Below, piece by piece: positions 16,209 through 63,078 of a stretch of 64,000 nt of DNA (the stretch's first letter is position 1; every line of letters begins with the position of its first letter). The position numbers and the translations under genes are program-made. Origin of the DNA: an uncultured virus (IMG/VR IMGVR_UViG_3300020056_000009) (Duplodnaviria; Heunggongvirae; Uroviricota; Caudoviricetes); the IMG/VR virus record IMGVR_UViG_3300020056_000009; one strand, 5' to 3'. The notes beneath the pieces were generated by a model. That model was given only the letters and a program-made list of their open reading frames with translations, searched no databases and was not told the origin of the DNA.

Positions 16209-16856
16209 ATGTCAATGAGAAGCCAAGTATATGAATGGAGTAACCTACAAGCAAGTAGTAACCAACTACGACGCACATCAGCCGATGCACCTGTCGCACT
16301 CACCGCAAACCGTGAGTATGACCTGTTCACTGGTGGCGTAGGTAACAACATTACCAAGCCCGCCGAAACGACCGCCACCCAATTCATCGTAATTGAGGAC
16401 ATCGCTGCATCACCTGTTATTGGTAGTGCTGTGCAAATCCGTATCAACACCACGGATTACTTCCAAAACCCCGATGTTACCGATATGCTCGGTATTCCTG
16501 GATTGGCAAGCCCATACCCCCGTGGTTCACCTTCCTCAGTCGATACGACTGTAGTGGGTGCCACCTCTGCAGGTTCAGAAAACATCCTAAAGTCTTTCGA
16601 CCTTTACCCCGATGTTTATGTCCTCCCAGGTCAAACCTTCCAAATCCTTTACACCTCCCGTGACGGAACGACTGCCACCACGACTGAGATCGTATCTTGT
16701 TTCCTCAAGTATACCCTCTACGATGGTCCAGACGCTCTAATCGCCAACAAGTTGCTCGAACTTGGTGTCACCATCAACCCAAACAATGTTGATTGGTATA
16801 AGCGAAGCCTCATCGAACAACAACAACGCTCCCGTGTCGCTGGAGGTCAAGCCTGA
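16209..16856 (+). CDS. putative major capsid protein A (beta-rich, possibly single jelly-roll)
   Basis: Tandem paralogue of 16895..17524 (MSMRSQVYEW, NNITKPAETTAT, LYPDVYVLPGQ, KYTLYDGPDALIANKLLE). C-ending codon bias suggests high expression. The fold is inferred. Confidence 0.6.
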   Translation: MSMRSQVYEWSNLQASSNQLRRTSADAPVALTANREYDLFTGGVGNNITKPAETTATQFIVIEDIAASPVIGSAVQIRINTTDYFQNPDVTDMLGIPGLASPYPRGSPSSVDTTVVGATSAGSENILKSFDLYPDVYVLPGQTFQILYTSRDGTTATTTEIVSCFLKYTLYDGPDALIANKLLELGVTINPNNVDWYKRSLIEQQQRSRVAGGQA

Positions 16857-16894
16857 TTCCGACACGGAATTAATTAATATAGGAGTTGAAAAAT

Positions 16895-17524
16895 ATGTCA
16901 ATGAGAAGCCAAGTATATGAATGGGACGCAAGCCGTGGAACTGCAATGAATCCTGCCACTCAAGTTGGAAAGCGACTTTCCATCTTCGTCGGTGGTGCAG
17001 GTAACAACATTACCAAGCCTGCTGAAACAACCGCAACCGAATTCGTCGTTATCGAAGATATCGCAGTAACACCTACCCTCGGTGTTCACTCCGCTGTCAC
17101 CGACGGCACCGAAATCCGTGGTCTCCGCTCCAGCGGCGGTATCGCAGGTCCTCGTGCCTATGTCCAAGTCCGTATCAACACGACTGACTACTTCCTCGAC
17201 CCAGATAACATCCCCAACGATGGTATCCCTGGTGCAGGTTCACCTTACCCACGAAGCATCAACTTCCAACCTTCCTTCAACCTATACCCCGATGTATATG
17301 TGTTGCCAGGTCAAGTTTGGGACGCTCTCGTAACCTTCTACAACAGCGGTGCTTTCGCAACCACGACCTCCGCTGCTGTCGGTGAACTACAATGTTTCGT
17401 CAAGTATACGCTTTACGACGGTCCTGACGCCCTCATCGCCAACAAGTTGTTGGAAATGGGTATCTCGATCAACCCAGGCAATGTAGACTGGTATAAGCGT
17501 TCTCTCCTTCAAGCACAAGCCTGA
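16895..17524 (+). CDS. putative major capsid protein B
   Basis: ATG at 16895 after an AGGAG SD; near-identical termini to 16209..16856; strong C-ending codon bias. Confidence 0.6.
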   Translation: MSMRSQVYEWDASRGTAMNPATQVGKRLSIFVGGAGNNITKPAETTATEFVVIEDIAVTPTLGVHSAVTDGTEIRGLRSSGGIAGPRAYVQVRINTTDYFLDPDNIPNDGIPGAGSPYPRSINFQPSFNLYPDVYVLPGQVWDALVTFYNSGAFATTTSAAVGELQCFVKYTLYDGPDALIANKLLEMGISINPGNVDWYKRSLLQAQA

Positions 17525-17822: not shown

Positions 17823-17843
17823 GACTGAATCTTAGCATTCAGT

Positions 17844-19548: not shown

Positions 19549-19582
19549 TAAGTATTTATTAGTGGTGTCGTAATAAAGTCTT

Positions 19583-20932
19583 ATGCCTGAAGTTCCACCT
19601 GCACCTTTACATATTACTACCCCTATGGGCCCTATTGAAGTAGACCCCGATAACATCCGAGATATTTATGGTTATGTGGCTAAGGCTACCAGTATGGATA
19701 TTCAAGACGAAGAAATTAAAAACTTTTTAGGAGATTCCGTAGAAACTAAGCGAGATTATTACAGCACCAAAGCCTATGTTGGTTGGGGTCATGCTATGAT
19801 GGCCGTTATTAACCGAGATTACGATATTGTTAAAATTACCAACTATAATAATCGCATGACTGCCGAAGCCAGCCCTATTTGGTTGGATGAACGCATCCGA
19901 TCTCGTGAAGGAGAAGAAACTCGCATCAAAGTTCCCCATCGCATGACGATGTATTTATCCCACAAAGATAATTCTCATGACCTTGTAATCACCTTTTATC
20001 CTTATGATACCTATGAGTTAGACATTTGTTATCATTTTGTTACCAATGGTAATTTTGATTACACTCATTGGAAAAACGAAATCAAAGAATCCTTTTCTAA
20101 GGAAGGTATTTACAAGAACCGTGCCATTACTGCTGATTTTGAATTTTTAGATTATCAAGATGTTTCTTGGGAAGATATTATCATTGAAACCAAGCCTCTC
20201 CAAGACCTCAATCGGAATGTTATTGATTTTATTTCCAACATGGACACCTACAAAAATTACAACATGAGGCTCAGTCGAGGTATTTTGCTTACGGGCCCTC
20301 CCGGAACGGGAAAGACTCTTTGTTGTAGTATTCTCATTAATCAAACCGATATTACCGTTATCTATGTTACTCGTAACGCCGTTACCGAAAGAGGACAAAT
20401 TGATGATTTGTATAAGTTAGCCCGATTCTTGAGTCCTTCTTTAGTAGTCTTTGAAGATATTGATACTTTAGGTGGTATCGATCGAGAAGAATCTGACCAT
20501 CCTCTCTTGGGAGAGTTCCTCAATTGCTTAGCAGGCGTAGAAGAAAATGATGGTGTTATTACTTTGGCAACCACCAATTATCCTCAACATTTAGATTGGG
20601 CTTTGGCAGATCGCCCCGGACGATTTGATGTTCGGATTAACTTTGGATATCCCGATAAAGATTCTCGCCAAAAGATTTTCTCCAAGTATTTGGCAGATTG
20701 TGAACAAGAAAAAATTAATTATTCTAATTGGGCCAAGAAAACTGATGGCTATTCGGGGGCCTATCTCCGAGAATTAGCCAATCTATCAATCATGATTAGC
20801 ATGGAATCCGAAGGAATTTTAACGGACAAAATTATTGAATCGGCCTTTGCAGAATTGGAATCACAACGCAAAATTGTAGCCAAAGAAAAGCGATTAATTC
20901 GCCATGATGACGAATCCCCGGATTATTATTGA
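19583..20932 (+). CDS. AAA+ ATPase (classic AAA clade; PAN/FtsH/CDC48-like ATPase module)
   Basis: Walker A GILLTGPPGTGKT, Walker B LVVFEDID, sensor ATTN, SRH DRPGRFD, TDGYSGA. Confidence 0.9.
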   Translation: MPEVPPAPLHITTPMGPIEVDPDNIRDIYGYVAKATSMDIQDEEIKNFLGDSVETKRDYYSTKAYVGWGHAMMAVINRDYDIVKITNYNNRMTAEASPIWLDERIRSREGEETRIKVPHRMTMYLSHKDNSHDLVITFYPYDTYELDICYHFVTNGNFDYTHWKNEIKESFSKEGIYKNRAITADFEFLDYQDVSWEDIIIETKPLQDLNRNVIDFISNMDTYKNYNMRLSRGILLTGPPGTGKTLCCSILINQTDITVIYVTRNAVTERGQIDDLYKLARFLSPSLVVFEDIDTLGGIDREESDHPLLGEFLNCLAGVEENDGVITLATTNYPQHLDWALADRPGRFDVRINFGYPDKDSRQKIFSKYLADCEQEKINYSNWAKKTDGYSGAYLRELANLSIMISMESEGILTDKIIESAFAELESQRKIVAKEKRLIRHDDESPDYY

Positions 20933-30835: not shown

Positions 30836-31537
30836 ATGGCAATTACCCGTCAGGCTTACGAGTGGCGTGGTGTAGTGCCTGAAGGCACCGTAGTTTCTAA
30901 AATCGGGCATCCTATTTTGGGTCGTTGGACTTCTGATGACGAAACTGCAGGTCGCACTTATTCTGAAACCATTGTGGTTCCCGATCTTCCTGCTGGCTCT
31001 CCCGTAGACATTTGGACCGGCGGGCGAGGAAATAATCTCAAAACTTCCGCCATGCTGAAAGCCGACCAATTAATTATTATTGATGGTTTAGCCTGTTGGC
31101 CTCCTGATGCTAACATCAATGTTTATGTAGACGATACTTATTATTTCGAGGCCCCGGATTATTCCTCTATCGATGGACTTACCGGCAACATGGTGCCCTT
31201 TCCTGAACCTAATGCTCGTAATATCTTTACTCACGAAGCCTTTCGTAATGGCTTATATCCACCCATTATTATTGAACCCGGATCTACTTGGGGTGTCTTT
31301 TGGTCACAAGATTCGGCTAACGGAACTTTTAATCCCACTTCTGATGACCAAATCCCCCGGGCCTTTGTCAGATATTTCTTGGTCGATGGACCTGATGTTT
31401 TAGTAGCCCAACAATTACAAAAATTAGGAATGCCACTTACGCTTAGAAATTTTGTTAGATACCGTCAAGACCTACTACGATGGCAAATTATGGGCGATTC
31501 TTATGTTTTTCGTGTTAATTCAGGAGAGGATTTCTGA
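30836..31537 (+). CDS. capsid-like family paralogue (minor capsid protein?)
   Basis: RQAYEW, WTGGRGNN, LYPPIIIEPG and YFLVDGPDVLVAQQLQKLG align with the 16209/16895 family. Confidence 0.65.
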   Translation: MAITRQAYEWRGVVPEGTVVSKIGHPILGRWTSDDETAGRTYSETIVVPDLPAGSPVDIWTGGRGNNLKTSAMLKADQLIIIDGLACWPPDANINVYVDDTYYFEAPDYSSIDGLTGNMVPFPEPNARNIFTHEAFRNGLYPPIIIEPGSTWGVFWSQDSANGTFNPTSDDQIPRAFVRYFLVDGPDVLVAQQLQKLGMPLTLRNFVRYRQDLLRWQIMGDSYVFRVNSGEDF

Positions 31538-32718
31538 TGCGACAATTAGCCTATTATTGGCGACTTCGTCCTGAAACCTTTGGTTACAATAATCAAGATT
31601 GGCCGGAACCTAAAATCCCGTTTTCTGTTTTTACCAGCCAATATGGATCTGCTGGAAAGCCTCAAGCCACCGATTATGCCTCTGCACAGCCCACAACCCT
31701 TTGGGAACAAAAACAAATTGCCTTTCTTCCACCGGTAAAATCTAATCAATTTATCGTTATCAATAATTTTGGTTCTACGCCCGGAGTGTTACCCAACCCT
31801 CAACGAATTACCGGATGTCGAACTTATCGATTATCTTTTTCTGTTACCGAAAGAACTACTAACACTTCCGCAGCCATTACTGGAATCACATTTACTGGCA
31901 CAGGCGGATCTGCCAAACCTACCTTTCCCCTGAGTTATTCGACGGCTTCAGAACTTAAAACCATTTTTGAAGACTTATTTCCTGTTCAAAATCCTACGGT
32001 GACCGTCACCGAAACTACGGGTTTAGATTTCAATACCTTTGCCATTACTATTGATTTCACGCTTTATGGTAGCAATCAACCCCGCCCCACACTTACTGTC
32101 AATTGGCAACCTTCTACTTTAGACCGAATTAGAACAGTTGATGCTGTTGGCACCTGTCAAGCCACTATTGATTTTATTGAAGGAGTCAAACCTAATGGTT
32201 TTGTGCAATTAGTTGTTAATGATACTCGTTATTTTAAAGAGCCTATTCATACTCAAGCCATAGGCATTTCGGGTGACGCCGCCCCCTTTCCTCACGAGGT
32301 TGGATTCCATGTGCCACAATGGTCACTTAAACCTAATTTTTATGTGCTTCCGGGTCAAACTTGGGATCTTCAATATACGGTTATGAATGATATTCCTGCC
32401 CTTAATGATTATATCAATTATCTTAATACTGCCCCATCACCTCCCGAACCCCCTGCTGAGTTTGGAACCTTTTGGACCTTTGCAGAAGTTTTTTGTAGTT
32501 ATTATCTTTTTGAAGATGCTGAAGCCATGATTTGTCATCAACTTCTCAAATTAGGAATTACGATTAATCCCGATTCAGTAATTTGGTATAAAAAACAAAT
32601 CCTGCAATCCGAAGGATTGGATACAGATACCTTTGAAGTTTACCTCGATTTGCAAAAGAAATGGGCTGAAAAGCAAAAACGATTAGAAAAACATTATCAT
32701 CGTGGCAGACCTAAGTAA
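31537..32718 (+). CDS. capsid-like family paralogue with a large internal insertion
   Basis: RQLAYYW, NQFIVI, VQLVVNDTRYF, FYVLPGQTW and LLKLGITINPDSVIWYK match the family; a T-rich insert of roughly 130 aa lies inside. Confidence 0.65.
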   Translation: MRQLAYYWRLRPETFGYNNQDWPEPKIPFSVFTSQYGSAGKPQATDYASAQPTTLWEQKQIAFLPPVKSNQFIVINNFGSTPGVLPNPQRITGCRTYRLSFSVTERTTNTSAAITGITFTGTGGSAKPTFPLSYSTASELKTIFEDLFPVQNPTVTVTETTGLDFNTFAITIDFTLYGSNQPRPTLTVNWQPSTLDRIRTVDAVGTCQATIDFIEGVKPNGFVQLVVNDTRYFKEPIHTQAIGISGDAAPFPHEVGFHVPQWSLKPNFYVLPGQTWDLQYTVMNDIPALNDYINYLNTAPSPPEPPAEFGTFWTFAEVFCSYYLFEDAEAMICHQLLKLGITINPDSVIWYKKQILQSEGLDTDTFEVYLDLQKKWAEKQKRLEKHYHRGRPK

Positions 32719-32750
32719 ACTATAAATAGTAGTGCAGACAAAGTGATACT

Positions 32751-33701: not shown

Positions 33702-34004
33702 ATGGGTGATCCAAACATCTTTTCCGGATACACTCCGGCCTCTATGGTAAAAGGTTATTCTCGTCGTGCGGCAATTACCATCCCTGCAGGGCCTATTGTT
33801 TCCGTAGTAGTTCCTGATGCCAATGTTACGGCTGATAACATAATTTTGTTTTCCGTAGAAAACCAAGATGCTAACATTACGCTTGATAATCCTGCTATCT
33901 TTATTAGCAGTCGATCAGCAGGCACTTCCTTTACGCTTACTTTAGTAGGCACAGCCGCCGCTGAAGGCACTCTTCACATCAATTATCTTCTCGTAGAGTC
34001 GTAG
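33702..34004 (+). CDS. small beta-rich structural protein
   Basis: GGTGA SD; AITIPAG..VTADNIILFS..GTSFTL..INYLLV pattern. Confidence 0.65.
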   Translation: MGDPNIFSGYTPASMVKGYSRRAAITIPAGPIVSVVVPDANVTADNIILFSVENQDANITLDNPAIFISSRSAGTSFTLTLVGTAAAEGTLHINYLLVES

Positions 34005-34380
34005 GTGGAATATACTTATTTTCGATTTCTCGAAGCGATTGAATTTCTATGGTTCCTCGTGCCGTAGTCCACGCCACATCACTTACGCCTTCGGATTTCA
34101 TAAATTCAATGCAATTAGCACACGGTTTGGCTAATCCATAAGATCCGTCGGCACGAAATCGGGCTACAACCACCGTGCAACCACGACCCCGGCGTTTTTG
34201 ATATCGTAGTTGGCGAAGAGCATCCACTTCGGCATGAAGACTACACCCTCGATAACCCTTTTTATTGTTGCCAATAGCGATAGGGCGTCCGCCTCGAACT
34301 ACCATGGCAGCCATAGGAACCCGACAATTGCTTTCCTCTTGGGCATCTCGCAGTTTTTCAACCAAAAGATCGAATCTCAT
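33979..34380 (-). CDS. cytidine/deoxycytidylate deaminase-like zinc protein
   Basis: HAE and PCxxC zinc motifs (SLHAEVDAL, AKPCANC). The likely start is MRFDLL at 34380, about 31 nt from TTATAAGGG. Confidence 0.85.
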   Translation of the reverse strand: MRFDLLVEKLRDAQEESNCRVPMAAMVVRGGRPIAIGNNKKGYRGCSLHAEVDALRQLRYQKRRGRGCTVVVARFRADGSYGLAKPCANCIEFMKSEGVSDVAWTTARGTIEIQSLREIENKYIPPTTLREDN

Positions 34381-34444
34381 TATTATCAATAAATCGTTGT
34401 TACCCTTATAAACTTTTATATAGTCGAATAGAGAACCAAAAGAC

Positions 34445-35284
34445 ATGGGTATTGATGTTTCGGGTTACACCGGAATCAGACCGGGTTTTACAGGTCTAAA
34501 TTATGCCACCAATTCTGGAGATTTCTTAATTGAAGTTGCTAAAGGCAACATTTCCGGACACTCTTTAGTCTTTAAATATGGTCGCAATCCCGATGTTGAT
34601 TCAGGTTCAGATCCCGAAGAAGTTTGGACTTATGGTGGCACTTATACTTATCCCACTTCGGCGGCTATTAATTATATTTCTTCTTCCGATAATAGTGATA
34701 CGCAAACCATTACTGTGGAAGGTTTAGATGCTGATTATAACCCACAATCAATTACCGTCACTTTGGCAGGAAATACTAAAACTCAGATCGGCACGGGAGA
34801 AACATGGCTACGAGTTTATCGAGCCTATAATTCTGACTCTACGGAGGTCGCAGGCACAATTTATATTTACGAAGATGATACTACCACCACTCCCGGAGTT
34901 CCCGATACTCCTTCAAAAGTTAAAGCCCAAATCTTGCCTGCGGACCAACAAACTTATATGGCTCTATGGACGGTTCCCTCAGGTCACACCGCCTTTTTCT
35001 TAGGTGGGGCAATCAGTATTACTACCGGTGCTTCAGCAGCCAAGGCTGCCTTTGTAGAACTACGATTTAGATTAGAAGACAAAATCTTTCGTTCTGCCGA
35101 ATTAATTGGTATTGCTTCTACTGGCTCCTCTACCTTTACTCAAGATCTTCATGCTATTGGTCCGGTTAGTTTTCCCGAAAAAACAGATATCCAAGCCCGA
35201 GTCCGAGAAGTAACTGCTAACGATACTGGTGTATCTGCCTATTTTTCGATTCTACTCATTGAAAATGAATACCTCAACATATAA
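34445..35284 (+). CDS. putative virion structural protein
   Basis: TATA at -30; beta-rich, T/S-rich; KYGRNPDVD, ITVEGLD and FPEKTDI motifs recalled from viral structural proteins. Confidence 0.65.
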   Translation: MGIDVSGYTGIRPGFTGLNYATNSGDFLIEVAKGNISGHSLVFKYGRNPDVDSGSDPEEVWTYGGTYTYPTSAAINYISSSDNSDTQTITVEGLDADYNPQSITVTLAGNTKTQIGTGETWLRVYRAYNSDSTEVAGTIYIYEDDTTTTPGVPDTPSKVKAQILPADQQTYMALWTVPSGHTAFFLGGAISITTGASAAKAAFVELRFRLEDKIFRSAELIGIASTGSSTFTQDLHAIGPVSFPEKTDIQARVREVTANDTGVSAYFSILLIENEYLNI

Positions 35285-41568: not shown

Positions 41569-44500
41569 TCAAAAATCTAAAGTTTGTTGTTTGCCTTTAC
41601 TCGGATCTTCAAAAGTTGATTCTACCCATTGACTCACATATTCATATAGTTGAGTAATATAGGGTTCACAGCCATATCGATCGATAATATCGCCCATAAG
41701 CCCATCGTATTTACTTACCGCACCATGACTTACAGTCATAATTAGGTTTCCTGGACACGGCACTTCAACTTCTTCTCCGGTGAAACTATCTCGGGTTTTC
41801 CCGGTAATAGTCATGCATTTCCCGCTAATCGGCACTCGCCGGTATTTGGCACCACATTTTGTGCAACGCACCTTTTGTTGTCCAAAGGCTCTCAGATTAC
41901 CACGCATATCTCGAATCAAGTGCGTATCAATTAGTTTAGCCGATTGCTTGCGATTATTAACCGCAAATAAGGTTTCTCCCAAAGCAAATTGCCCCATAGT
42001 TTTCTGCCTCATACTTAGATTGAGGTCTTTATCATTATACGGATTCCATTCCGGACCCTGATTACAATCTTCGGTATCGTGGGTAAACCCAAATCCCTCA
42101 CTTTCCCCGGGAGTTCCGAGTCGTAATTCTGCAATTTCAATTCCTGTCTTTAAGGCTTCCTTAGGGCTGGGAAGATCTGTCCAAGTAAGGTCATAAAACT
42201 CTTTAGTGTATTTCCAACTGGTATCTACATTGAGAGCCTCTTTATCGATTTCCGAAGCATTAATTCCCATCGTAAGAATTAAGGGAGCATCCATCTGACC
42301 ACCACGACTTCTTGGCAAGAACTTTTTGCTAAAGTTGAGCAATCCTTCAGTCAGCATAATAATAGCATCAATATCGCCATCACAATTACGGCGTTTGGCA
42401 GCATGAAAGAACGGATGACCATAGTGACCCTTGACATCACAGAACCCAATAATACGAGCCAAGATAGCCCCTGAAGTGTGTGGGGCAATGCCCATAATCA
42501 ACTGACCTTGTAAATCTTCTGGCGTTGCCACATTATAATACGGCTTCATACCATATAGTTTTACCAATAGGTCATCAGTAAACTGACATACCCGAATTAG
42601 ATCTTCCACACAATTTTGAGGAATAACGACATCTTGGGTAAAAATCTCACAAGTATCATTTTCAGAATCAACTAAATATCCCAATTGACGAGCCTTGTCT
42701 ACCGACAATCCAATTTCTTTTGGTCTAAAGTGCGTCATCGTAATATCTACCATATCAAACCGAATAGTTCCATCACGAAACACCGAAACCTCGTGCTTAC
42801 TTCTCAAAATCCCTTTTTCCATAGGTTCGGTAATGCCTTCAGAGTTCTTTACGGTTTCTACACCTTTTACCTTTGGCGGAGTAGTTACCTCACAGCGTTC
42901 CAAAGCCGATTCCCAAATCTGATTCATATCTACCGATCGCCACTTCTTTTCGTGATAATTAGTAGCCACCGGGTCGCCATGTTGAAGACAATAACTTAGG
43001 TGGGTTTCTTGCTTACACTTGGGACAAAATCTGGAAGAGATACCAACCTTTTCATCTTTAGGGGCTGCCGTGTTAATCAACTTGGTGTTACCACCGCTTT
43101 TGCCAATAGGAAATAAACAATGAGCCCGACTGGGTTTCATATCACGCATTTTGCTGCCTTCGGGTTTACCCATACGAGCCCCAATACGATAAGTAGTGCG
43201 AGGAAGAATTTTAATTCCTGCTAATCGGCTTAGGTAATCCATAGGGTTTTCTTGGTCTTTAGGAGGAGATAGATTTCCCAACATATGCAAAATCAGAGAA
43301 TTCTCCGCACCCCACAGATTATTCTCCGAATCGATATTAATGTTAGCCCGATAAATTAATTGGTTATCACCATTATATTGTAATTTTTGTGCACAAAGCG
43401 AAGGATGACAATTACTCAATAATTGATAAATCTCTTTTGCGGTTAGATCTTGCCATCCTGCTGCCACATATTCAGGATTCAAAGGAACTTTATACACCTT
43501 ACTTTGTTGCACCGACTCAATAAAATCCCTGGGGAAAGATATACCCTGTTCGGCTAACACCTCACGGTGCCACTCGGGAACATAAGGTGACTTCATAAGT
43601 GGGTGATTATTTTCTAAAAATTCTCCCACAGGAACTAAAAGTTCTCCTAAATCCCATACTTGACGAATGTTGTATTCTTGGTCATTAGGCATCGCCAAAA
43701 CGATTTCATTAGCATCTTGCACCCGGTGGGCAGAACCATCTAACCATTCGACATACGGCCCTTGAATAGTATCACACGGCGTTACCACGGTGCCTTTGCC
43801 CGGACGCTCATACTTCATTTGAGTTCCGATCGAAACAAACCCGCTGGTAGCCTTCATGGTAGCGGGATGACACGCCGTAGTCGCCAATCCTGCCAATCGG
43901 CTACGACCATATCGGAGTCTAAAACCACCTTCGGCCATCGGCATACTAAAAATTGGTCGTCCTGCCAACACTTCAGCCATATATTTGGGATTAGGTTTAA
44001 TTTCTGCGGCTCCTTTGTTAGTCTTCAAAAATTGGTTTAGCCAATCCCAACCATCCAATTGTAATTGGTCCACATATTTTAGGATTTTAGGGGCTTTCAG
44101 CACTAACCCTTCGCACATAACCAAGAGAGCACCTTCTCTAACCTTGTTATCTTTAACTCGGGCCAAATCACGCTGTCCAGTAACTTCCGTTCCTACGCCT
44201 TCACCATCCACGAAAATAGGGCAGTTGCCTGCCAAGATCTCTAATTCAGGATTAGAGGGTCGGTATTGTAAACCTCGATAAATGCTGACTTCTTCTTTAT
44301 ATCGCTCTACTTCTTCATAGGTGGCAACGGCCACCCCTAAATCAAAGTCACGACGCAAGATATCCGCAATCAAAACTGATAGGGCTTGTCCAGTGCCCCC
44401 GGCACTCCGAATTGGACCAGCATAATTAACGGCTAAGCAAGAGGTTCCATCCTGATTAGTAATTACACGGCAACTCACCACACCTTCCAACGGGGCTACC

Positions 44501-45042
44501 AAAATGCCTTCGGTTAATACCGCCAACCCTGCACAAATACCGTGATACATACATAGGGCTTGTCTGACACGATCTCCGGATTTAGAACTGCTTTGAAATT
44601 CCTGCAAAGTTTCTTGGATAGTATTGCTTAAGACTTGTGGCCCATAGGCTAAAATATACCCGGCTCCACCACAGTCATCACAACTCATAAACCCTCGTCC
44701 ACGCTTGATTTCTCCCGTTCCTGTGCAAACTTCACAATTATTTTTAATACCATAAAGATAAGATTCCGCACAGACAATTCGAGCAATATCCAAAGCCATT
44801 AGTTCCCGATTACCATCGTATTTTTCATTGAGTTCTCGGATTTGGGCGGCTGTGTTACGGTCATGCAAAAACTTCAACAATTTTTGAGTTCGTTCTGCAA
44901 GGTCGGTTGCCATAGGAATCTCGATCTCTAATTGCGGGTCATAGCCTTGCGATTTGGCTTGATTGACCATATCATAGGCTTGATAACAACCCTCGTGTAG
45001 TTTTTGACGATATTCCTCTTCGGAAATACGCTTCGCAACCAT
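41569..45042 (-). CDS. polC: DNA polymerase D large subunit (DP2)
   Basis: TEGILVAPLEG, YAGPIRSAGGT, GGFRLRYGRSR, GTQMKYERPGK, IGARMGKPE, FRDGTIRFD, APHTS, catalytic HAAKRRNCDGDID, GGQMDAPL, GNLRAFGQQKVRC; C-terminal PIP-like QQTLDF. Confidence 0.97.
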   Translation of the reverse strand: MVAKRISEEEYRQKLHEGCYQAYDMVNQAKSQGYDPQLEIEIPMATDLAERTQKLLKFLHDRNTAAQIRELNEKYDGNRELMALDIARIVCAESYLYGIKNNCEVCTGTGEIKRGRGFMSCDDCGGAGYILAYGPQVLSNTIQETLQEFQSSSKSGDRVRQALCMYHGICAGLAVLTEGILVAPLEGVVSCRVITNQDGTSCLAVNYAGPIRSAGGTGQALSVLIADILRRDFDLGVAVATYEEVERYKEEVSIYRGLQYRPSNPELEILAGNCPIFVDGEGVGTEVTGQRDLARVKDNKVREGALLVMCEGLVLKAPKILKYVDQLQLDGWDWLNQFLKTNKGAAEIKPNPKYMAEVLAGRPIFSMPMAEGGFRLRYGRSRLAGLATTACHPATMKATSGFVSIGTQMKYERPGKGTVVTPCDTIQGPYVEWLDGSAHRVQDANEIVLAMPNDQEYNIRQVWDLGELLVPVGEFLENNHPLMKSPYVPEWHREVLAEQGISFPRDFIESVQQSKVYKVPLNPEYVAAGWQDLTAKEIYQLLSNCHPSLCAQKLQYNGDNQLIYRANINIDSENNLWGAENSLILHMLGNLSPPKDQENPMDYLSRLAGIKILPRTTYRIGARMGKPEGSKMRDMKPSRAHCLFPIGKSGGNTKLINTAAPKDEKVGISSRFCPKCKQETHLSYCLQHGDPVATNYHEKKWRSVDMNQIWESALERCEVTTPPKVKGVETVKNSEGITEPMEKGILRSKHEVSVFRDGTIRFDMVDITMTHFRPKEIGLSVDKARQLGYLVDSENDTCEIFTQDVVIPQNCVEDLIRVCQFTDDLLVKLYGMKPYYNVATPEDLQGQLIMGIAPHTSGAILARIIGFCDVKGHYGHPFFHAAKRRNCDGDIDAIIMLTEGLLNFSKKFLPRSRGGQMDAPLILTMGINASEIDKEALNVDTSWKYTKEFYDLTWTDLPSPKEALKTGIEIAELRLGTPGESEGFGFTHDTEDCNQGPEWNPYNDKDLNLSMRQKTMGQFALGETLFAVNNRKQSAKLIDTHLIRDMRGNLRAFGQQKVRCTKCGAKYRRVPISGKCMTITGKTRDSFTGEEVEVPCPGNLIMTVSHGAVSKYDGLMGDIIDRYGCEPYITQLYEYVSQWVESTFEDPSKGKQQTLDF

Positions 45043-45064
45043 ATGACGATATTATCGTCATCAC

Positions 45065-45073
45065 CTTAATATA
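45065..45073 (-). promoter_or_regulatory. TATATTAAG(GT) promoter class of replication genes
   Basis: TATATTAAGGT lies 30-31 nt upstream of polC (45073), the dNMP kinase (60822) and the DinG helicase (63037). Confidence 0.75.
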
Positions 45074-46023: not shown

Positions 46024-47259
46024 GTGATTAATATAACCGAAGTAACTGATGAAATCCGTGAGAAAGCCAAAGTTATCGCTGAGGCTACGGGAAGATCTGT
46101 GCAATCAGTTATTGATGACCTTATGGATGATGGTATCGTAAACCTTTCTAATGAAGAAAAGAAGGATAAAGATTTAGTTACTCAACTTAAAGAAGCCGCC
46201 GAATTGATTACTACGGTGCAATCCATTAATCAACAAGTTACTAAAAACACCGTTCTCAACGGTGGAGACAACAAAACTGAGGTCAAAGTGGAAACCACTT
46301 TAGAAGGTGACATTGTCGATCGAGCCATTGAATCGGCACAACGCAAAGCCGATAACATCAAAAAACTGATTCTTACTTTGGCCCCGATTTTCCTATTATT
46401 AACGGGTGGTGCTGGTTTAGAAGTTCTCGGAATTACTGACATGGTGGGTTCGGATGACGACAATTATGACCCGTATAACTATGAAGTAGTTTGGGGTTGC
46501 ACCGTTTGGGATGCTGAAAATTACAATCCCGATGCTACTGAAGATGACGGTTCTTGTTGGTGGGACGATGGCGGTGGAGGCAACGAAACCAATAATTGTA
46601 ATCCTGATTGGTGGTGGCAAAATGAAGCCATTTTTGACCATGACCACAACGGACAAGGATATAACAACGACCTTCGTGTGCAAGTGGACTTCCGAGATTT
46701 AAACCAATGTAATATCCACATGAACAACGGCTACTTTGAAATCATGGTCGGAGATGATTCCCGAGTCTTAGAATATGATTTTCACAATGAATTTATCATT
46801 AACGAACATTACCTTGATCTCGCTCCCGGCGATTACTATGTCACCGTAGATTATTATACCTATGATGGTTCCTCTTGGTCGGGTCCAACCGCATGGATCA
46901 CGATGGAATCCGAGCCGACTTGTGCAACGGACTTGATTCACAAAGACGCTGAATTGTATTTGATTAACGGCAACGAATTAGAAGTCGCCATGATTATTCA
47001 ATCCAACAACGATTGTGAAGACGACATAGATTTCATGTTTAGCCTATATCACAATAACACTTACCAAAGCACCGTTGATTACGGAGTCTTACCCACATAT
47101 ACGGTATCCGGAACGGGCGAATACCGAATCACTTTGGCTCATAGCGATTGGAAAAACCTCGGAGAAGGTCTTTGGAATCTTGAAACCCGATTTTACACCG
47201 AATCCGATGGTGAAGTGTGTTGCATTATGACTAACAAAATTGAAGTCAAGAACGATTAA
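46024..47259 (+). CDS. membrane protein with extracellular Cys-motif and Ig-like domains
   Basis: Central TM; GCTVWDAENYNPDATEDDGSC motif; beta-rich C-terminus. Confidence 0.75.
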   Translation: MINITEVTDEIREKAKVIAEATGRSVQSVIDDLMDDGIVNLSNEEKKDKDLVTQLKEAAELITTVQSINQQVTKNTVLNGGDNKTEVKVETTLEGDIVDRAIESAQRKADNIKKLILTLAPIFLLLTGGAGLEVLGITDMVGSDDDNYDPYNYEVVWGCTVWDAENYNPDATEDDGSCWWDDGGGGNETNNCNPDWWWQNEAIFDHDHNGQGYNNDLRVQVDFRDLNQCNIHMNNGYFEIMVGDDSRVLEYDFHNEFIINEHYLDLAPGDYYVTVDYYTYDGSSWSGPTAWITMESEPTCATDLIHKDAELYLINGNELEVAMIIQSNNDCEDDIDFMFSLYHNNTYQSTVDYGVLPTYTVSGTGEYRITLAHSDWKNLGEGLWNLETRFYTESDGEVCCIMTNKIEVKND

Positions 47260-51488: not shown

Positions 51489-53171
51489 TCACAAATCATA
51501 CAACATAATTCTACCATCTACAATATCCATGACTCCCATATCAATTAATTTGGTTTTCATATCATCGCTTAACGACAATCCTAAATCCGACATACGCTTT
51601 TTAGCCTCCAACAAATTATCATATTGTCCACTATCGGAATTACGCACCAAAGCCGCATACAATTGTTGCACCTTGCCATCAGCCTCCATGAGATCCACAT
51701 TAAGAGGAATGTTCTCAATAAGGGTTTTCAAGGAGGTATTAAACAAGGTTTTGGCTTGATAAAGGTGATTAGAATTAACTACGGAATCTCCATTCAATCG
51801 GGCTAAGCCTTTACACAAGTTAATGAATTGTTGGAACTTACGGTTTTCTCGTTCTGCTCGTTGAAGAAATACCTTTTTGAACTCTTCCGATTCTTCTACG
51901 GAACTAAACTCTTGCCAAATAAAATCTTCAATAACATCCATATCAGGATTTAAACGACTCACATAACGAAGATATTCCTTAAAGAATCGTCGCCACATTT
52001 TCAATTCGGCTTTGGCTTGCGGGGTTTCAAACTTGCCGGTCATGTTATCCATGATCTTCCTTTTTACGAATTTATCAGCGTTATCATCACCATAGGTCAA
52101 ACTCATTTGAGCAAAGATTAAAGTCATACGGCTAATCATTTGGAAGGTATACTCTTTAAAGACATCCAACATCGCCAACTTATCCATCTTATCAGAATAG
52201 GATTTATCAGGATTGCCCCAAAAACTCATATTAAGACAAGCATCACGCTGCACATCGATTTGACCTTTCTGCATAGTATAATAACCATTAGCCAACATAT
52301 TCATAAGTTCACCAAAGACATCTGAACCCCATGTTTGAAACTCGGATACAGCAATACGCTCGTTATTCATTTTTCCAATCAAACCTAATTCTACGGAGTT
52401 AAGATCTTCGCCACTCATGGCTCCAAACAATCCTGGAATTGTGCATAGTTTTCCTGTCGAGGCTACCCCTGTGGGCACCAAAGGTTGCATAATGTTTTCG
52501 ATTAGGTGGTCTTTGCCTTCACCCATGCTGGTAATCACCGCAATATGAATCATATCCGTTTTCTTAAACGGGCTTAAACAATTCAATAACACGGCTTGCT
52601 TAATGCTATCTGCCGCATAAACATGACGCCAAAGAGTTTTATCATCCATCATCAATTTGAGTGGACTTACCTTCTTTTCTTGACATACTGCCAAAAACTT
52701 TTGAAACTGTTCTGTCGTCAGTTGGCTTTGCTTATCGTCATTCTGTGGTTCTATCTTTTCGACTACAAACACCTTTTCTCCTTGATGGAGTTGGTAACTC
52801 CCGAAAATTTGGATTTGATTACCATTACGCTGTGAATCAGTCAAAAGGCTGAGAGCCGTCGTCAAATCGGCAGGAGGCATACCCCCAGGAATGAGAGTAA
52901 CTCCATTGTGAGCCATACATTTGACGGCATTACTACCATCGCTAACGACAAAGTGAATAGCAATCTTCTCATAAGGGTCTAACAACGATCGAGTCGGTTT
53001 AGCACCTTTCCGAGATTTCACCAACGGTAAGTCTTCAATCTTGATACAAATTCCCGAACCCTTTCGAGGACGAGAACTAATCTTAGACTGATAAACTTCG
53101 GCTACCGTAGCATCATAGTCCGTAAAGGAGTTTACACAGGATTCGACGAATTGGGTCAATTCCGAGTCCAT
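51489..53171 (-). CDS. divergent MCM-family AAA+ helicase
   Basis: IHIAVITSMGEGKD (Walker A-like), STGKLCTIPGLFGA, IAVSEF (Walker B-like), MSFWGNP, MISRM, RKFQQFINLCKGLARL..V...HL..A..LF. Confidence 0.75.
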   Translation of the reverse strand: MDSELTQFVESCVNSFTDYDATVAEVYQSKISSRPRKGSGICIKIEDLPLVKSRKGAKPTRSLLDPYEKIAIHFVVSDGSNAVKCMAHNGVTLIPGGMPPADLTTALSLLTDSQRNGNQIQIFGSYQLHQGEKVFVVEKIEPQNDDKQSQLTTEQFQKFLAVCQEKKVSPLKLMMDDKTLWRHVYAADSIKQAVLLNCLSPFKKTDMIHIAVITSMGEGKDHLIENIMQPLVPTGVASTGKLCTIPGLFGAMSGEDLNSVELGLIGKMNNERIAVSEFQTWGSDVFGELMNMLANGYYTMQKGQIDVQRDACLNMSFWGNPDKSYSDKMDKLAMLDVFKEYTFQMISRMTLIFAQMSLTYGDDNADKFVKRKIMDNMTGKFETPQAKAELKMWRRFFKEYLRYVSRLNPDMDVIEDFIWQEFSSVEESEEFKKVFLQRAERENRKFQQFINLCKGLARLNGDSVVNSNHLYQAKTLFNTSLKTLIENIPLNVDLMEADGKVQQLYAALVRNSDSGQYDNLLEAKKRMSDLGLSLSDDMKTKLIDMGVMDIVDGRIMLYDL

Positions 53172-58511: not shown

Positions 58512-60319
58512 CCATGTGGGGCACATTTATTGATGCTGGCAGTTTAGGTTTTGTTTTTAGTTCGGAAGAACCGGACCAAGTTATCAAAGTTATGAGTATT
58601 GATGATTCTTACAATCCCGACTTTGTAATCAATGTTATGCAGTATCGGTTGTTTCAACAACTTAAGAAAGACCAAAAAAAAGGTGAGTTTACGCCAGGGC
58701 TTCCTGAGATCGATTATTTGTTTACTATTGAAATGACACCTCAATTAATGCAACAAATATGGAGTAACACGGATATAGAGGATAATAAATCTTATTATAA
58801 GAGGTTTAGAGAAGAGATTCCCTATGGTAGTCAAGTTGCGATAGTTCTTATGGAAAAATTGGCTGTCCCTACGGAAGATGTAGGTCGTAAAGGATTATCC
58901 GCTATGTTACGCTATTTAGTTTCTAATGGTTGGATTGCCCGAGATTTACGAGTTACCAATAAAGGATTGAATCCGGCTGGCGATGTGATTTGGTTTGACC
59001 CAATGGTAGCACCTTTAAGTCCTCGAACAGAACAAGATATTGCCATTTGGGAAGATTGGTTTGAAGACTCCATAGAAAATTACCAAAAAGCCATTGCTAA
59101 TAAAAAATACTTTACCCATGAACATGATTTTGGTTTGTTTTATTCCGAATCTGAAGATTATTGGTTGCGGGGTGGATGTGGTCAAGCCGCCCAAGCCATT
59201 TCCGAACAATTAACGGCTCAAGGAATTCCCCACCATTTTGAAATTGGTTTGGCCTATTTAGATGACGATAAGTTTGTGGGTAACCATATTATTGTGGTGG
59301 CCGATAACCAAGCCATAGATTATTATGGAGTTGGCGGTGCCCGACAGCGATGGAAAGAAATGATTGTTCGGGATTACAACTATGAAGACCTCCCAGATTT
59401 CCTATTATCTGATTATCTAACTATTGAATGGATTCCTGTCAAATCTGACACAAATTTCCAAGTGCACATCAGAGGAGATTATCTTCCTGCTTCGGGAAAC
59501 AAAATTACCAGCAAAACATTAGGATTTAAATCTGAGGTGAACCGATTGAAATCGAAAAAGGTTATTGTTATCAATGTCAAAGACAAAAAAGTAGTAGGAC
59601 TTACCCAATGGAATTATTCTAATGGCACTCGATCTTATAAATCAATCCCTATTCCTCCACAACTTAAGGGTAACACCAAATATCCGGATTTATTCAAAAG
59701 GTTTTACACCGCCATTGCCGTTTCTTCTTATATTTACGATGAAGATTCGGGACGCTTTAACGCTGAATCTTATCCTCGTTGCTATCTTTGTGGTTTTCCA
59801 GCCAAGATTGAGGTCTTAACGGCTGTGGGAATGCGTAATTTTTGTGGCAATAAATGTCGAGGAGAATACGAAGGCATAGATTATGGTGATTATGATAGTC
59901 CTAAATTAGAACACCAATTAACGATTACTAATTACAATATAGGTTATCTTCCAGAAGGATATGAGGGACGGGAATCTAAACTTACTATCGATTGTGCTAA
60001 CTGCCCACTACATTTAATAGAAGACATTCCTCAATATACTGATATTTATGATGATTATCGTCAAGGTCACAACCATCATGTTAAAATATGGAATGAAGAG
60101 TGGGAAGATTATGAGGAAGAACCTTGTATCAATCATGATTTAAAGATTACTCGGTATTTATCTAATACTGAAGAGTGGGATGGAACCCGATTAGGAGAAG
60201 TTGCTTTTAGATGTCTAAAATGCGGTTATCGAGATATGATTTATGCTGACATTCCCGAAGGGTGTAATAACACCGGAAGATCTAAACCATCGCCAAACTT
60301 TTATCAAAATAAGTCTTGA
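58508..60319 (+). CDS. polyprotein-like: kinase-like + Cys-His-Asp (transglutaminase/papain-like) + zinc modules
   Basis: IDAGSLGFVF, VIK, LMEKL, ARDLRVTN, WFDP; then FYSES | GGCGQAA..NHIIV..AIDYYG | FKSE | FNAES | CYLC..FCGNKC. Confidence 0.7.
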   Translation: MTMWGTFIDAGSLGFVFSSEEPDQVIKVMSIDDSYNPDFVINVMQYRLFQQLKKDQKKGEFTPGLPEIDYLFTIEMTPQLMQQIWSNTDIEDNKSYYKRFREEIPYGSQVAIVLMEKLAVPTEDVGRKGLSAMLRYLVSNGWIARDLRVTNKGLNPAGDVIWFDPMVAPLSPRTEQDIAIWEDWFEDSIENYQKAIANKKYFTHEHDFGLFYSESEDYWLRGGCGQAAQAISEQLTAQGIPHHFEIGLAYLDDDKFVGNHIIVVADNQAIDYYGVGGARQRWKEMIVRDYNYEDLPDFLLSDYLTIEWIPVKSDTNFQVHIRGDYLPASGNKITSKTLGFKSEVNRLKSKKVIVINVKDKKVVGLTQWNYSNGTRSYKSIPIPPQLKGNTKYPDLFKRFYTAIAVSSYIYDEDSGRFNAESYPRCYLCGFPAKIEVLTAVGMRNFCGNKCRGEYEGIDYGDYDSPKLEHQLTITNYNIGYLPEGYEGRESKLTIDCANCPLHLIEDIPQYTDIYDDYRQGHNHHVKIWNEEWEDYEEEPCINHDLKITRYLSNTEEWDGTRLGEVAFRCLKCGYRDMIYADIPEGCNNTGRSKPSPNFYQNKS

Positions 60320-60792
60320 TAATCATCATAAGAGGCATCGACATTTGCCCAAATATACTCTTCGGGAATTAAGTCTACTTCGCTTTCACTAATATCTTCT
60401 CGATTAGCCCAATGAGATTCCCAATCAGCATAAGTGGTCTGCAATCTTTCTTTTTGCAGATCTTCATCAATTACCAAACGAACTACCTTCCATCCGGCTT
60501 CCGTCAAGGCTTTGGCCTCATTAACGAAACGAACATCATCAATAACAATGTTTTCATGATGGTTTCCCAAATCAATAACATAATCAATCCACACCGATGG
60601 TCTGATTTCTCGCATCTTCATACCAATTTGTTGTAACAACGGCCGGTCTTTTTCTTCCATACCAAACAAATCATGAGCAATCTCTTTAACTTTGGCCGCC
60701 AATGAAACTTTATGGTAATCTTGGTGGTCTACCAACCAATTAGCCATCGTGGTTTTCCCTGAGGCCATTCTCCCGGCGATTGCGATCTTCAT
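60304..60792 (-). CDS. deoxynucleoside monophosphate kinase-like P-loop protein
   Basis: MKIAIAGRMASGKTT, RPLLQQIG, IDDVRFVNEA, DISE; start is 30 nt from TATATTAAG. Confidence 0.88.
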   Translation of the reverse strand: MKIAIAGRMASGKTTMANWLVDHQDYHKVSLAAKVKEIAHDLFGMEEKDRPLLQQIGMKMREIRPSVWIDYVIDLGNHHENIVIDDVRFVNEAKALTEAGWKVVRLVIDEDLQKERLQTTYADWESHWANREDISESEVDLIPEEYIWANVDASYDDYQDLF

Positions 60793-60814
60793 GTCGAACC
60801 ATAGTTCAACCACC

Positions 60815-63007
60815 TTAATATAACTTTGTTTGTCGTTGCGATTGCATGGCATCGTTAAAGTATTCTGGTAAGAACTCTTTAAGAGGTTTGCCACCATCAC
60901 GCTGAGAGCGAAGATGGTAGTCAAACGATGGATCGATAATATACATCTTACCTTGGTCTTTGGGACTACGGACAATTCTTCCTAACATCTGCGTCAGCAT
61001 GACACCGGTTTGCATCGTATACCAATCAGGATTATCTTTCAACTTTTTAGCAATCCGCACATCTCCCAAACTGGGGAAAGGTAATTTGGGAATAACCAAG
61101 AATCCCACCGAACCGCCATCATAACCTTGGTTGGCATAGGTAGACACCAAAATCTGATTACCTTGTGACTTGTTAAAGTTCTCGAAAACCTGATCTCGTT
61201 CCGTCGGATTTTTAGAATGCGTAATAATTCTGTCGGCTACATTGCGGTCTACATCGGCCACAGCCTCTAAAATCTTCTTTTCTAATTCATCCGTATAAGG
61301 CAAAATCAGTCCCTTTTGATTAGGAAATTGATTAGCAATTTCTACAATGCGTTCTGCAGTTTGACGATAATGTTCTTCCCTGCGTCCTCGACGACTCAAA
61401 TCTCCACCCTTGAAGGCCGTAAAAATAGGTCGGTTGGTTACCGGGAAACTGCTATACTTAATTTGAATGTAACAAGTCTCTGATTTTTTAAGTCCCATTT
61501 CTTGACAATAAATATCAATGTCGGCAATAGTTCCGCTTAAGAAAATACGATGCTTGCCTAAGCCCAACAATAGTTCTTCCGATCTATCGGTAATATCCAT
61601 AGGCTTAAAAGATATGAAAATAGGTTCTTCTTCGTCATCATACTGCCAAATGATATTCTCCGGTTCAGTCTTTAGACTTTCAATAAGTCGTTGCAGATAA
61701 TTTTTCGTGTTAGCCGCCATACGCACCGTTTTCTCATCATACTGTTTCATACGGCCTGAAATTTCTGATACCAAGCGTTCCAAATACATCAACCATACTT
61801 TCGAGCCCATAACTTGTCGGTCTTTAGGAGTATCGGTTCTAATGCTACCGATCTTCGGGAATCCCCATGTCATTGGACTTGATACTGGATGCCAAGTAGT
61901 TAAGAGATTTTCTCGCTTCCTTGCCATACCATTTTGATTGGCTTCAGGGGCAGCCATGATTTCATTAAAACTGGGAATATCTAATAGCATTTCCAACTTC
62001 TTTACCGAAAGCGTTAAAGCATAATAATCTGCCAAAGTATTGGGTAGTGTATGAGCCTCATCAAAAATAATGAAATCACGAGGCAATAAATACATTCCGC
62101 TGGAGTTCATACGCATAAGATAAGAGGTATTACCCACAAAATAACGGTTATGGTGGGCTTTATGCAAGGCTTGATAATACTCACATAGTTTATCTTCTGA
62201 TACTGACCAATCCACTTGTTGCTTCTTAATTGGTAATTTCATACCACACTTAAATCCAATTGTGCTGCACGGGGCTAAATCTGCTTGAGTAGTTTCTTGC
62301 TGTGGGCGACCCATCTGATGAGCCTCCCATGCTTTTTGGGCTTCGGCTTCAGAACGACAATTAGCCTCAATGCTAAGCGAACAACCATAATTGCCTTTAC
62401 CCATCACCGATCTCATAAAGGGCATTTCATCAAGATATTGTTTTTGCAAACCCTTGAGAGGAGTTACCACATAAGCCCGACTATCAAACATCTTGGGAAC
62501 TACCATCGCCATAGCCGATTTACCAGAACCTACCGGAGACTCTACCACAATGTTCTTGTATCCTGCTTTCACGGCTTCGGCAATTTCAGGAATTACCTGT
62601 TGTTGTTCTTGACGAGGGGTGCCAAATCGTGTATTGGTAAAATAATCTGATATCTCGTATTGTGGTTTCATCATCGGCGTAACTTGAATAGTTTTAAATC
62701 CTGTGGCTTCCAATTCTTCGGGAAGTTGGTGACCACCGATCTTTCCTAATTGAGTATCATCAAAATCCTTTTGCTGAATAAAATCATCTTCTTCTGCTTC
62801 TTCGGCCACATTGACCGGATTACCTGAAACCCACATCTGCAAATTAAAATGATTACAAAATTGTTCCAAGTTAGCAATCTTACGACCTCGAATCTCCATT
62901 TCTCCACGATAACATTTACGAGATTTATCCCACTTTAAGTGATATGTGCCAGCCAAAATATCTCGATAAGGATAACAATTACCTCTTACCGTTACAGGAA
63001 CGAACAT
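60815..63007 (-). CDS. DinG/XPD-family SF2 helicase
   Basis: Q motif PRQEQ, ESPVGSGKS, IFDEAH, FLSGT, KLPFP, QMLGRIVRSPKD; Cys-rich insert; start MFVPV is 30 nt from the TATA. Confidence 0.92.
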   Translation of the reverse strand: MFVPVTVRGNCYPYRDILAGTYHLKWDKSRKCYRGEMEIRGRKIANLEQFCNHFNLQMWVSGNPVNVAEEAEEDDFIQQKDFDDTQLGKIGGHQLPEELEATGFKTIQVTPMMKPQYEISDYFTNTRFGTPRQEQQQVIPEIAEAVKAGYKNIVVESPVGSGKSAMAMVVPKMFDSRAYVVTPLKGLQKQYLDEMPFMRSVMGKGNYGCSLSIEANCRSEAEAQKAWEAHQMGRPQQETTQADLAPCSTIGFKCGMKLPIKKQQVDWSVSEDKLCEYYQALHKAHHNRYFVGNTSYLMRMNSSGMYLLPRDFIIFDEAHTLPNTLADYYALTLSVKKLEMLLDIPSFNEIMAAPEANQNGMARKRENLLTTWHPVSSPMTWGFPKIGSIRTDTPKDRQVMGSKVWLMYLERLVSEISGRMKQYDEKTVRMAANTKNYLQRLIESLKTEPENIIWQYDDEEEPIFISFKPMDITDRSEELLLGLGKHRIFLSGTIADIDIYCQEMGLKKSETCYIQIKYSSFPVTNRPIFTAFKGGDLSRRGRREEHYRQTAERIVEIANQFPNQKGLILPYTDELEKKILEAVADVDRNVADRIITHSKNPTERDQVFENFNKSQGNQILVSTYANQGYDGGSVGFLVIPKLPFPSLGDVRIAKKLKDNPDWYTMQTGVMLTQMLGRIVRSPKDQGKMYIIDPSFDYHLRSQRDGGKPLKEFLPEYFNDAMQSQRQTKLY

Positions 63008-63078
63008 ATTTATCCATAGGTAGACGACCTTAATATACTTTGCTAACATATAAATAGTTGATCGCCTAAATCATATTT

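Follow-up and report, generated by a model that had tools for sequence, protein, structure and literature searches.

The subject of this work is a gene for a family D DNA polymerase (PolD) in a 64,000-nucleotide stretch of DNA from an uncultured virus (IMG/VR record IMGVR_UViG_3300020056_000009), which was analysed at its full length and is called the window here. Judged by its sequence, the open reading frame (ORF) at 41569-45042 is an intact large subunit of PolD, DP2, and would be expected to have polymerase activity. We propose that it is the catalytic DP2 of a mobile element's own PolD, that the window covers the middle 64 kb of a linear element of double-stranded DNA, 142-200 kb in length, and that this element belongs to a very widespread marine and estuarine family, most likely of large archaeal viruses. 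We regard this reading as probable, and it is weighed below against a plasmid-like element, a piece of an archaeal chromosome and a captured or misassembled gene.

The DP2 gene and its clade

The identity of the gene is supported by family models and by comparison with solved structures. Three Pfam domains run through the ORF in order (PolC_DP2_N, E 8.7e-80; PolC_DP2_central, E 9.2e-90; PolC_DP2_cat, E 9.5e-109), and the NCBIfam polC equivalog model TIGR00354 is passed with 978.9 bits at a cut-off of 702.15; a further NCBIfam model, NF003103, gave 1073 bits, under its cut-off of 1269. By phmmer the protein matches the Thermococcus kodakarensis DP2 6knb_B in the PDB at E 3.3e-205, in four stretches spanning residues 11-1155 that leave residues 88-164 and 498-597 unaligned. 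The gene and its features are as follows.

41569..45042, minus strand: full-length PolD large subunit DP2, ATG start, 1157 amino acids (aa), the longest ORF of the region
44614..44745, minus strand: clade-specific insert in the DP2 N-terminal domain (residues ~100-143), with two DnaJ-type CxxCxGxG zinc-finger motifs (C103, C106, C121, C124)
42367..42387, minus strand: catalytic motif NCDGDID (N886-D892), aligned to ncdgdeda of 6knb_B
41755..41865, minus strand: C-terminal zinc finger (C1060, C1063, C1076, C1096), its Cys columns invariant in 19 sequences
41572..41589, minus strand: PCNA-interacting-peptide (PIP)-like C-terminal tail QQTLDF, a predicted clamp-binding site from comparison of tails

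A preliminary description of this DNA had claimed a full-length DP2 with an intact catalytic CDGDID, a C-terminal zinc finger and a PIP-like tail, and all of these are present. Within RRNCDGDID (residues 884-892) the aspartates D888, D890 and D892 do not vary among 19 family members, nor do the four cysteines of the C-terminal finger, which lies in the part of DP2 that we take to bind the partner subunit DP1 in solved PolD structures. The protein ends in ...KQQTLDF, where Q1152 and L1155 are nearly invariant in the family.

The DP2s of the element family also carry features of their own. The CxxCxGxG motif is found in all 29 element rows of our DP2 alignment, in two copies in 22 of them, versus none of the 112 other rows, among them the nearest relative of the family, P0305. 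The four cysteines of the insert are invariant, and the insert, which lies within the ~77 residues (88-164) left unaligned to the Thermococcus protein, is modelled as beta-hairpins with a predicted local distance difference test score (pLDDT) of 86-89; its matches to Anti-TRAP and DnaJ are weak and under their cut-offs. NCDGDID is likewise found in 29 of 29 element rows, with Ile where other DP2s have Glu and with all three Asp retained. Among the 112 other rows, 45 have NCDGDED and 6 have NADGDED, while 61 are unmatched by a simple regular expression; many of these, we think, are interrupted in the motif by inteins. Element tails take the form QQxL[WF] or QQTLDF versus KQxSLxDF[LF] in cellular DP2s, that of the window being one residue shorter.

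Homologues were sought exhaustively in a set of 1.84 billion representatives clustered at 50%. A single representative, P0054 (57% identity), stands for the entire element family; P0305 follows at 49%, and the rest are at 48% or less. A FastTree phylogeny was built from 141 DP2 rows (the 29 element rows, representatives down to rank P0399 of at least 1000 aa, and 24 named loci with an ORF of at least 900 aa, leaving aside nine partial named loci), and a quick IQ-TREE phylogeny under LG+G4 from 67 hand-thinned rows (17 from the element set of 29, and 50 from the other 112). In both, the element rows and P0305 are monophyletic with full support (100), and the stem that leads to them measures about 0.5 changes per site (0.55 in IQ-TREE). 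A search of IMG/VR gave no relative of P0305.

Six of the 20 neighbouring representatives have organism labels: four Thermoplasmatota, one Methanomethylophilaceae, which belongs to an order of Thermoplasmatota, and one 'Euryarchaeota archaeon'. Far from the element clade lie the DP2s of Hadarchaeota, Hydrothermarchaeota, Methanobacteriaceae and Micrarchaeota. The trees and the source labels of the neighbours are thus consistent with the link to Thermoplasmatota that had been suggested earlier as an impression, and a member of this phylum may be the host of the element.

The gene holds a fixed place. Gene order around DP2 is constant over all 14 related loci (54-100% DP2 identity), with an MCM-like block on one side and a conserved block of orphan genes (41271/40437/38150/36216/35321/32751) on the other. 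The stretch was found in 18 DNA runs. In one of these that is not flagged as a possible source (X4), a 2538-nt contig spans 40394-42931 and a 631-nt contig spans 44855-45485; because these contigs bridge both ends of the gene into its neighbours, DP2 is not a chimeric join, the outcome that the preliminary description had named as one that would overturn it. The GC content of the region is like that of the rest of the window. Two RNA libraries (X20 and X24) each yielded three contig pieces of 35-151 nt overlapping DP2, and DNA can occur in such libraries.

Relatives of this DP2 run to thousands in metagenomes, in graded steps of 91-77%, ~68% and 53-59% identity, and 57 metagenome loci are close to it (65-100%). 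Their bin labels at NCBI clash, naming Rickettsiales, Woesearchaeota, Bacteroidetes, Thorarchaeota, Flavobacteriaceae and Euryarchaeota, and contradictory names of this kind are the telltale mark of a mobile element drawn into bins of unrelated organisms. Contigs of the family top out at ~170-200 kb, with the exception of two NCBI records of 104 and 140 Mb. These two contain exact copies of P0203 and P0289, which are 77-87% identical to a 215-aa protein of the window described below, and are presumably eukaryote-scale assemblies that carry the element by contamination or otherwise.

Related elements and the predicted replisome

A scan with a single protein gave no close relative of the window in IMG/VR; an alignment scan gave four, which are 123-166 kb long and of which two have inverted terminal repeats. 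One, G004, is 166,176 bp long and has inverted terminal repeats of 3.46 kb that are 99.45% identical. Its 31-93 kb part and the window are collinear in opposite orientations, and 50 of 78 window ORFs have a homologue in G004. G004 encodes DP2, DP1, PCNA, an MCM-like helicase, an XPD/DinG-like helicase, an ATP-dependent ligase and a FEN-like nuclease, together with the transcription factors TFB (NF001658, 368.9 bits over 303 of 312 positions) and TBP. Its further genes include a class II ribonucleotide reductase, Hjc-like, Hef/XPF-like, UvdE and Fpg nucleases, an ArsA/Get3-type ATPase and one tRNA. Three tandem C5 cytosine methyltransferases with a fourth elsewhere, and a 923-aa protein with an N-terminal Cu/Zn superoxide dismutase domain, were also seen in this genome (L096 7168-9766; L101 2377-3333; L101 11894-14662). 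Ribosomal and housekeeping operons had been named beforehand as the mark of a cellular chromosome. This complete relative showed no housekeeping genes, and ribosomal protein S7, for which the bacterial bin G005 served as positive control, was found in none of four viral records.

Four of five related records have DP1, 58-80% identical to that of G004. The G004 protein resembles the Pyrococcus abyssi DP1 5ihe_A (E 1.7e-66) and retains the motifs DIH, GDvvDG, GNHD, HG and GHtH; its gene lies ~90 kb from DP2, beyond the part that matches the window. DP1 adjoins TBP in the distal arm of all three records that have both genes (G004 145645-148935; G001 137885-139752; G003 15812-20585). Given the position of the window, and with DP1 in the distal arm of the relatives, a window free of DP1 is to be expected, and neither DP1 (PF04042) nor PCNA is among the 65 window ORFs of at least 100 aa that were scanned, as had been noted for DP1. 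The preliminary description had supposed that the two proteins are either the host's or encoded elsewhere; the relatives favour elsewhere on the element, since PCNA too is present, in four of four related records. Both genes would then be expected in the window's own genome, by analogy with relatives whose DP2s are 54-78% identical to its own. An MCM-like gene was found in five of five related records, TBP in three of four, weak PriS-like matches in three of four and PolB in none of five.

In the model that we propose, the PolD holoenzyme is a product of the element itself, DP2 being encoded in the window and DP1, its exonuclease site intact, in a distal arm whose content is predicted from the relatives. 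The short C-terminal tail of DP2 would tether the polymerase to the element-encoded PCNA, and PolD would work with the MCM-like helicase, the XPD/DinG-like helicase, the ATP-dependent ligase, the FEN-like nuclease and probably a divergent PriS-like primase. PolD would be the replicase of the element because no family B polymerase is present; across the family, no other replicative polymerase was seen. The two helicases lie in the window:

51489..53171, minus strand: divergent MCM-family AAA+ helicase, 560 aa (Pfam MCM at E 5e-4, under the cut-off)
60815..63049, minus strand: XPD/DinG-family superfamily 2 helicase, 744 aa (Helicase_C_2, ResIII and DEAD; phrog_2488, E 1.5e-78; NCBIfam YoaA and DinG)

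The MCM-like sequence on its own matched nothing in the PDB, and a profile of six orthologues found MCM6 (8ouw_6) at E 1.5e-10; the G004 orthologue passes the Pfam cut-off with 26.3 bits. Of the replisome of PolD, MCM, single-stranded-DNA-binding protein and DinG that had been put forward for this DNA, the polymerase and both helicases thus hold up, and no binding protein was recognised: its 163-aa candidate at 53454-53945 has no match in Pfam, NCBIfam or a further search. The XPD/DinG-like helicase ends in QTKLY, in the format of the family's QQxL[WF] tails, and the end of its G004 orthologue differs; from this tail, the helicase may be a second clamp client. We considered whether clamp-docking tails are common to many proteins of the element and set the idea aside, as they occur in only two of 78 window ORFs and convincingly in one of 220 G004 ORFs.

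The promoters of the window are of one kind. TATAWATAG occurs at 31 sites where 1.39 are expected (at most 5 in 100 shuffles), for example at 955-963, 1347-1355, 12092-12100 and 32721-32729, often preceded by AAA. Of 78 ORFs, 29 have it upstream, with its T1 30-31 nt before the ATG in 21 cases. DP2 has a box in the same phase:

45065..45073, minus strand: TATA-like box TATATTAAG, its T1 placed 31 nt ahead of the DP2 ATG, the phase of TATAWATAG at 21 other genes
45043..45061, minus strand: perfect inverted repeat, its 9-bp arms parted by a single nucleotide, in the interval that separates the TATA box from the DP2 start codon

In archaea, transcription begins ~26-27 nt downstream of the centre of the TATA box. 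A spacing of 30-31 nt therefore places the start of transcription at the ATG, giving leaderless mRNAs, and this arrangement of sites indicates leaderless archaeal transcription from one promoter type. Such a pattern fits archaea and an element with its own TBP and TFB, and we suggest that the host's archaeal RNA polymerase reads these uniform promoters with the aid of both factors. A eukaryotic host, which was raised by the TBP, TFIIB-like, SAP and superoxide dismutase genes and by the two contigs of 104-140 Mb, was rejected on the same spacing. Perfect palindromes that abut the start codon were seen also upstream of 4855, 10371, 12122, 30836 and 49716-50210 (minus strand), their sequence varying by gene; palindrome stems of at least 6 bp occur in seven of the 29 TATA-bearing upstream regions versus 2.1% of random 24-mers.

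Candidate virion genes and the nature of the element

The evidence for a virus includes a family of paralogues in the window and an ATPase gene in its relative:

16209..17524, plus strand: two adjacent paralogues of 215 and 212 aa, candidate jelly-roll virion proteins and the most conserved genes of the family
30836..32718, plus strand: two further paralogues of the same jelly-roll family, with blastp matches to the same G004 genes (alignment A2)

The 215- and 212-aa proteins are 77-79% identical to their G004 copies by blastp and have 1563 and 1528 homologue clusters, and in the ESM Atlas the clusters to which the 215-aa protein belongs bear the label 100% viruses, the labels being automatic. 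Its model (pLDDT 70.3; predicted template modelling score 0.67) is a beta-sandwich followed by helices, and the best match in the PDB is the capsid protein of the archaeal virus SPV1 (6oj0; Foldseek E 1.5e-3; VIA Z 7.7, with a root-mean-square deviation of 3.7 over 135 residues). For two of the jelly-roll paralogues, modelled together from alignments A3 and A4, the complex score was 0.00, which is counted neither way. Just past the left end of the window, outside the matching part, G004 has a HerA/FtsK-like ATPase gene (93947-95233), which matches 8yho_A in the PDB (E 1.2e-8), HerA in NCBIfam and, under the cut-off, DUF87 (E 4e-4). It also matches a PHROG for the terminase large subunit (phrog_2666, E 1.7e-13); by its PDB, Pfam and NCBIfam matches it is HerA-like. 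From these predicted folds and matches, our leading, if tentative, reading is a virus whose capsid would be built of small jelly-roll proteins and whose DNA would be packaged by a HerA-type ATPase.

The rest of the window is mostly orphan. Pfam (E <= 0.001) matches 12 of its 65 ORFs and leaves 53 without a match, PHROGs match 11 of 65, and neither a tRNA nor an Rfam family was found in the 64 kb. The orphans of the earlier picture of DP2 'embedded among orphan and structural-type genes' are borne out, and the structural-type genes are not, as family searches reveal none and a jelly-roll model of moderate confidence is all that represents them. Other genes with an assigned family are these:

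60304..60975, minus strand: deoxynucleoside monophosphate kinase, its true start probably internal (AAA_18, DNMK; phrog_139, E 9e-25)
33979..34446, minus strand: deoxycytidine monophosphate/cytidine deaminase (PF00383, E 4e-9; phrog_174)
19583..20932, plus strand: classical AAA+ ATPase of the CDC48/FtsH/PAN type (PF00004, E 1.8e-21; NCBIfam matches)

Besides the helicase and the kinase, the strongest phage-family match of the window is that of a 279-aa orphan at 34445-35284 (plus strand) to phrog_8198, of unknown function (E 2.6e-36). Between ~46450 and 47440, contigs of several runs skip or replace 46472-46606 and 46684-46891 and end loosely at 46453 and 47436, a pattern suggestive of a hypervariable segment within a 411-aa orphan gene (46024-47259, plus strand) whose G004 homologue has 673 aa.

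Several observations count against reading the window as part of an archaeal virus that replicates with PolD. HK97-fold capsid, portal and large terminase genes were found by Pfam and PHROGs neither in the 65 window ORFs nor in 184 G004 ORFs, divergent versions being possible, and the SPV1 match at Z 7.7 is inside the noise band stated for VIA, where a Z below 8 may reflect a common arrangement only. DP1, PCNA, TBP, TFB and the ends are seen in relatives at 54-78% DP2 identity and not in the window's own genome; the records with inverted terminal repeats have a CheckV completeness of only 61-65%; and one related record, G002, has neither DP1 nor TBP. We assume that G002 is probably a fragment without the distal arm, because both DP1 and its neighbour TBP are absent. 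Within DP2 itself, the Glu-to-Ile change sits inside the catalytic motif, and QQTLDF is one residue short of the canonical PIP box QxxLxxF[FL]. The affinity to Thermoplasmatota leans on the source labels of six of 20 neighbouring representatives, the trees are unrooted and include no Poseidoniales reference, and their backbone around the element clade is weak (78-80). A virus is thus likely but unproven, because no capsid gene has been identified above noise. What stands of the large archaeal virus of the preliminary description is a large, linear, non-cellular element with inverted terminal repeats that is filed as viral by IMG/VR, and what falls short is a capsid gene above that noise.

It is here that a serious rival, though in our judgment a rather unlikely one, has its strength: a giant plasmid or Borg-like linear extrachromosomal element of a marine archaeon, which would have its own PolD and never form virions. 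Long inverted terminal repeats, a large set of replication and repair genes and an ArsA/ParA-like ATPase would suit such an element, as would capsid, portal and terminase families that go unrecognised and a jelly-roll match in the noise band. It is less easily reconciled with relatives that IMG/VR and the ESM Atlas label viral (again automatically), with a HerA/FtsK-type ATPase that adjoins a long one-directional block of orphan genes, with four beta-sandwich paralogues for which the closest structure is the capsid protein of an archaeal virus, or with the great abundance and high conservation of the 215-aa protein. We retain the large archaeal virus as the more probable identity of the element.

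That the window is instead a piece of the chromosome of some unknown, fast-evolving small archaeon (DPANN-like), with DP2 as its ordinary cellular replicase, seems very unlikely and is largely refuted. PolD, PCNA, MCM, TBP and TFB are hallmarks of archaeal cells, and some relatives sit in bins labelled Woesearchaeota or Thorarchaeota; those labels, however, contradict one another, the window combines 53 of 65 ORFs without a Pfam match with the lack of any tRNA or Rfam family, and the complete 166-kb relative has 3.46-kb inverted terminal repeats, a single tRNA and no S7 that we found. No contig of the family exceeds ~200 kb, bar the 104- and 140-Mb records, which are unlikely to be prokaryotic. 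We give as little credence to the idea that DP2 is a recent capture from a host or an assembly chimera with no part in the replication of the element. Viruses often carry stray host genes, and the window has no DP1, yet the gene occupies the same position in all 14 loci across 54-100% identity, its clade is monophyletic and long-stemmed with a private insert and motif, DP1 accompanies it in four of five records with PolB in none of the five, and contigs of another run bridge both of its ends. The 'recent' and 'chimera' parts of this idea are refuted.

Significance and comparison with known systems

PolD, described until now from cellular archaea alone, has been treated as the single family of replicative polymerases without viral members, and a PolD clade that is mobile and probably viral would close this gap. 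A global survey of replication in double-stranded DNA viruses states that it found no homologues of family D polymerases in viruses (PMC4889955), and a 2024 paper lists viruses with families A, B and C only and has archaeal viruses encoding family B (PMC11348598); a DPANN-associated virus with a DP1 gene is reported in a further paper (PMC12647753). Our full-text literature search, its scope excluding paywalled papers and supplements, returned no DP2 in a virus or mobile element, and tblastn with DP2 and the 215-aa protein gave no match among 50,697 GenBank phage records. It is tempting to speculate, and we do so tentatively, that these are the first family of viruses known to replicate with a family D polymerase. 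In that case an old DP1-DP2 lineage, marked by its deep branch, long stem and own zinc-finger module, would be the replicase of new, globally abundant, large (166-200 kb), non-tailed linear archaeal viruses with inverted terminal repeats, small jelly-roll capsids and HerA/FtsK-type packaging. If the jelly-roll and HerA reading is true, no other virus of that architecture outside eukaryotes would come near them in size.

Beyond this, the clade bears on scenarios for the origin of replicative polymerases and their exchange between viruses and cells, and it offers biochemistry a compact, intein-free DP1-DP2 pair from a mesophilic setting. The family is common, with more than 1500 clusters of the 215-aa protein, and its contigs are misnamed in public bins, so that recognising it cleans genome databases.

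Known systems resemble the element in different respects. The Borgs and mini-Borgs of Methanoperedens are linear, with long inverted terminal repeats, many orphan genes and an archaeal host; the element shares its linear form, its repeats and its wealth of orphans with them and differs in habitat and host, a comparison made by description only. With the viruses that combine jelly-roll capsid proteins and a FtsK/HerA ATPase (Portogloboviridae SPV1, Sphaerolipoviridae HHIV-2 and HCIV-1, and phage P23-77), the likeness lies in the best structural matches, which include 6oj0, 6h82, 6h9c and 3zmn, in the adjacency of the two most conserved paralogues and in the HerA-like ATPase of G004. All these structural matches, however, have Z below 8 and are not significant, and genomes of such viruses are ~15-35 kb, as against 166 kb for G004; because of both, we do not claim membership in the group.

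Magroviruses (Magrovirales), tailed viruses of Poseidoniales, are described as having a nearly complete archaeal-type replisome, with a family B polymerase, HK97 capsid, portal and terminase genes, and with only a DP1 homologue in group C (PMC5434244). They are, like our elements, marine and archaeal, with a replisome of archaeal type. The elements differ in that PolB is present in none of five related records, DP2 is present, HK97 capsid, portal and terminase genes were not found, genomes are larger and inverted terminal repeats are long.

The closest comparison for the enzyme itself is with cellular PolD, as known from Pyrococcus abyssi (6hms/5ijl) and Thermococcus kodakarensis (6knb). The three DP2 domains, the Asp triad, the zinc finger and a C-terminal tail are the same, and the DP1 partner, with its intact phosphoesterase site, is encoded in the relatives of the element. 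In contrast to its cellular counterparts, the element DP2 resides on a linear element of 142-200 kb rather than on a chromosome, is at most 49% identical to any other DP2 cluster, and has a DnaJ-type zinc-finger insert, NCDGDID in place of NCDGDED and a shortened tail. The genes for DP1 and DP2 are usually close together in cellular genomes, whereas in G004 they stand ~90 kb apart.

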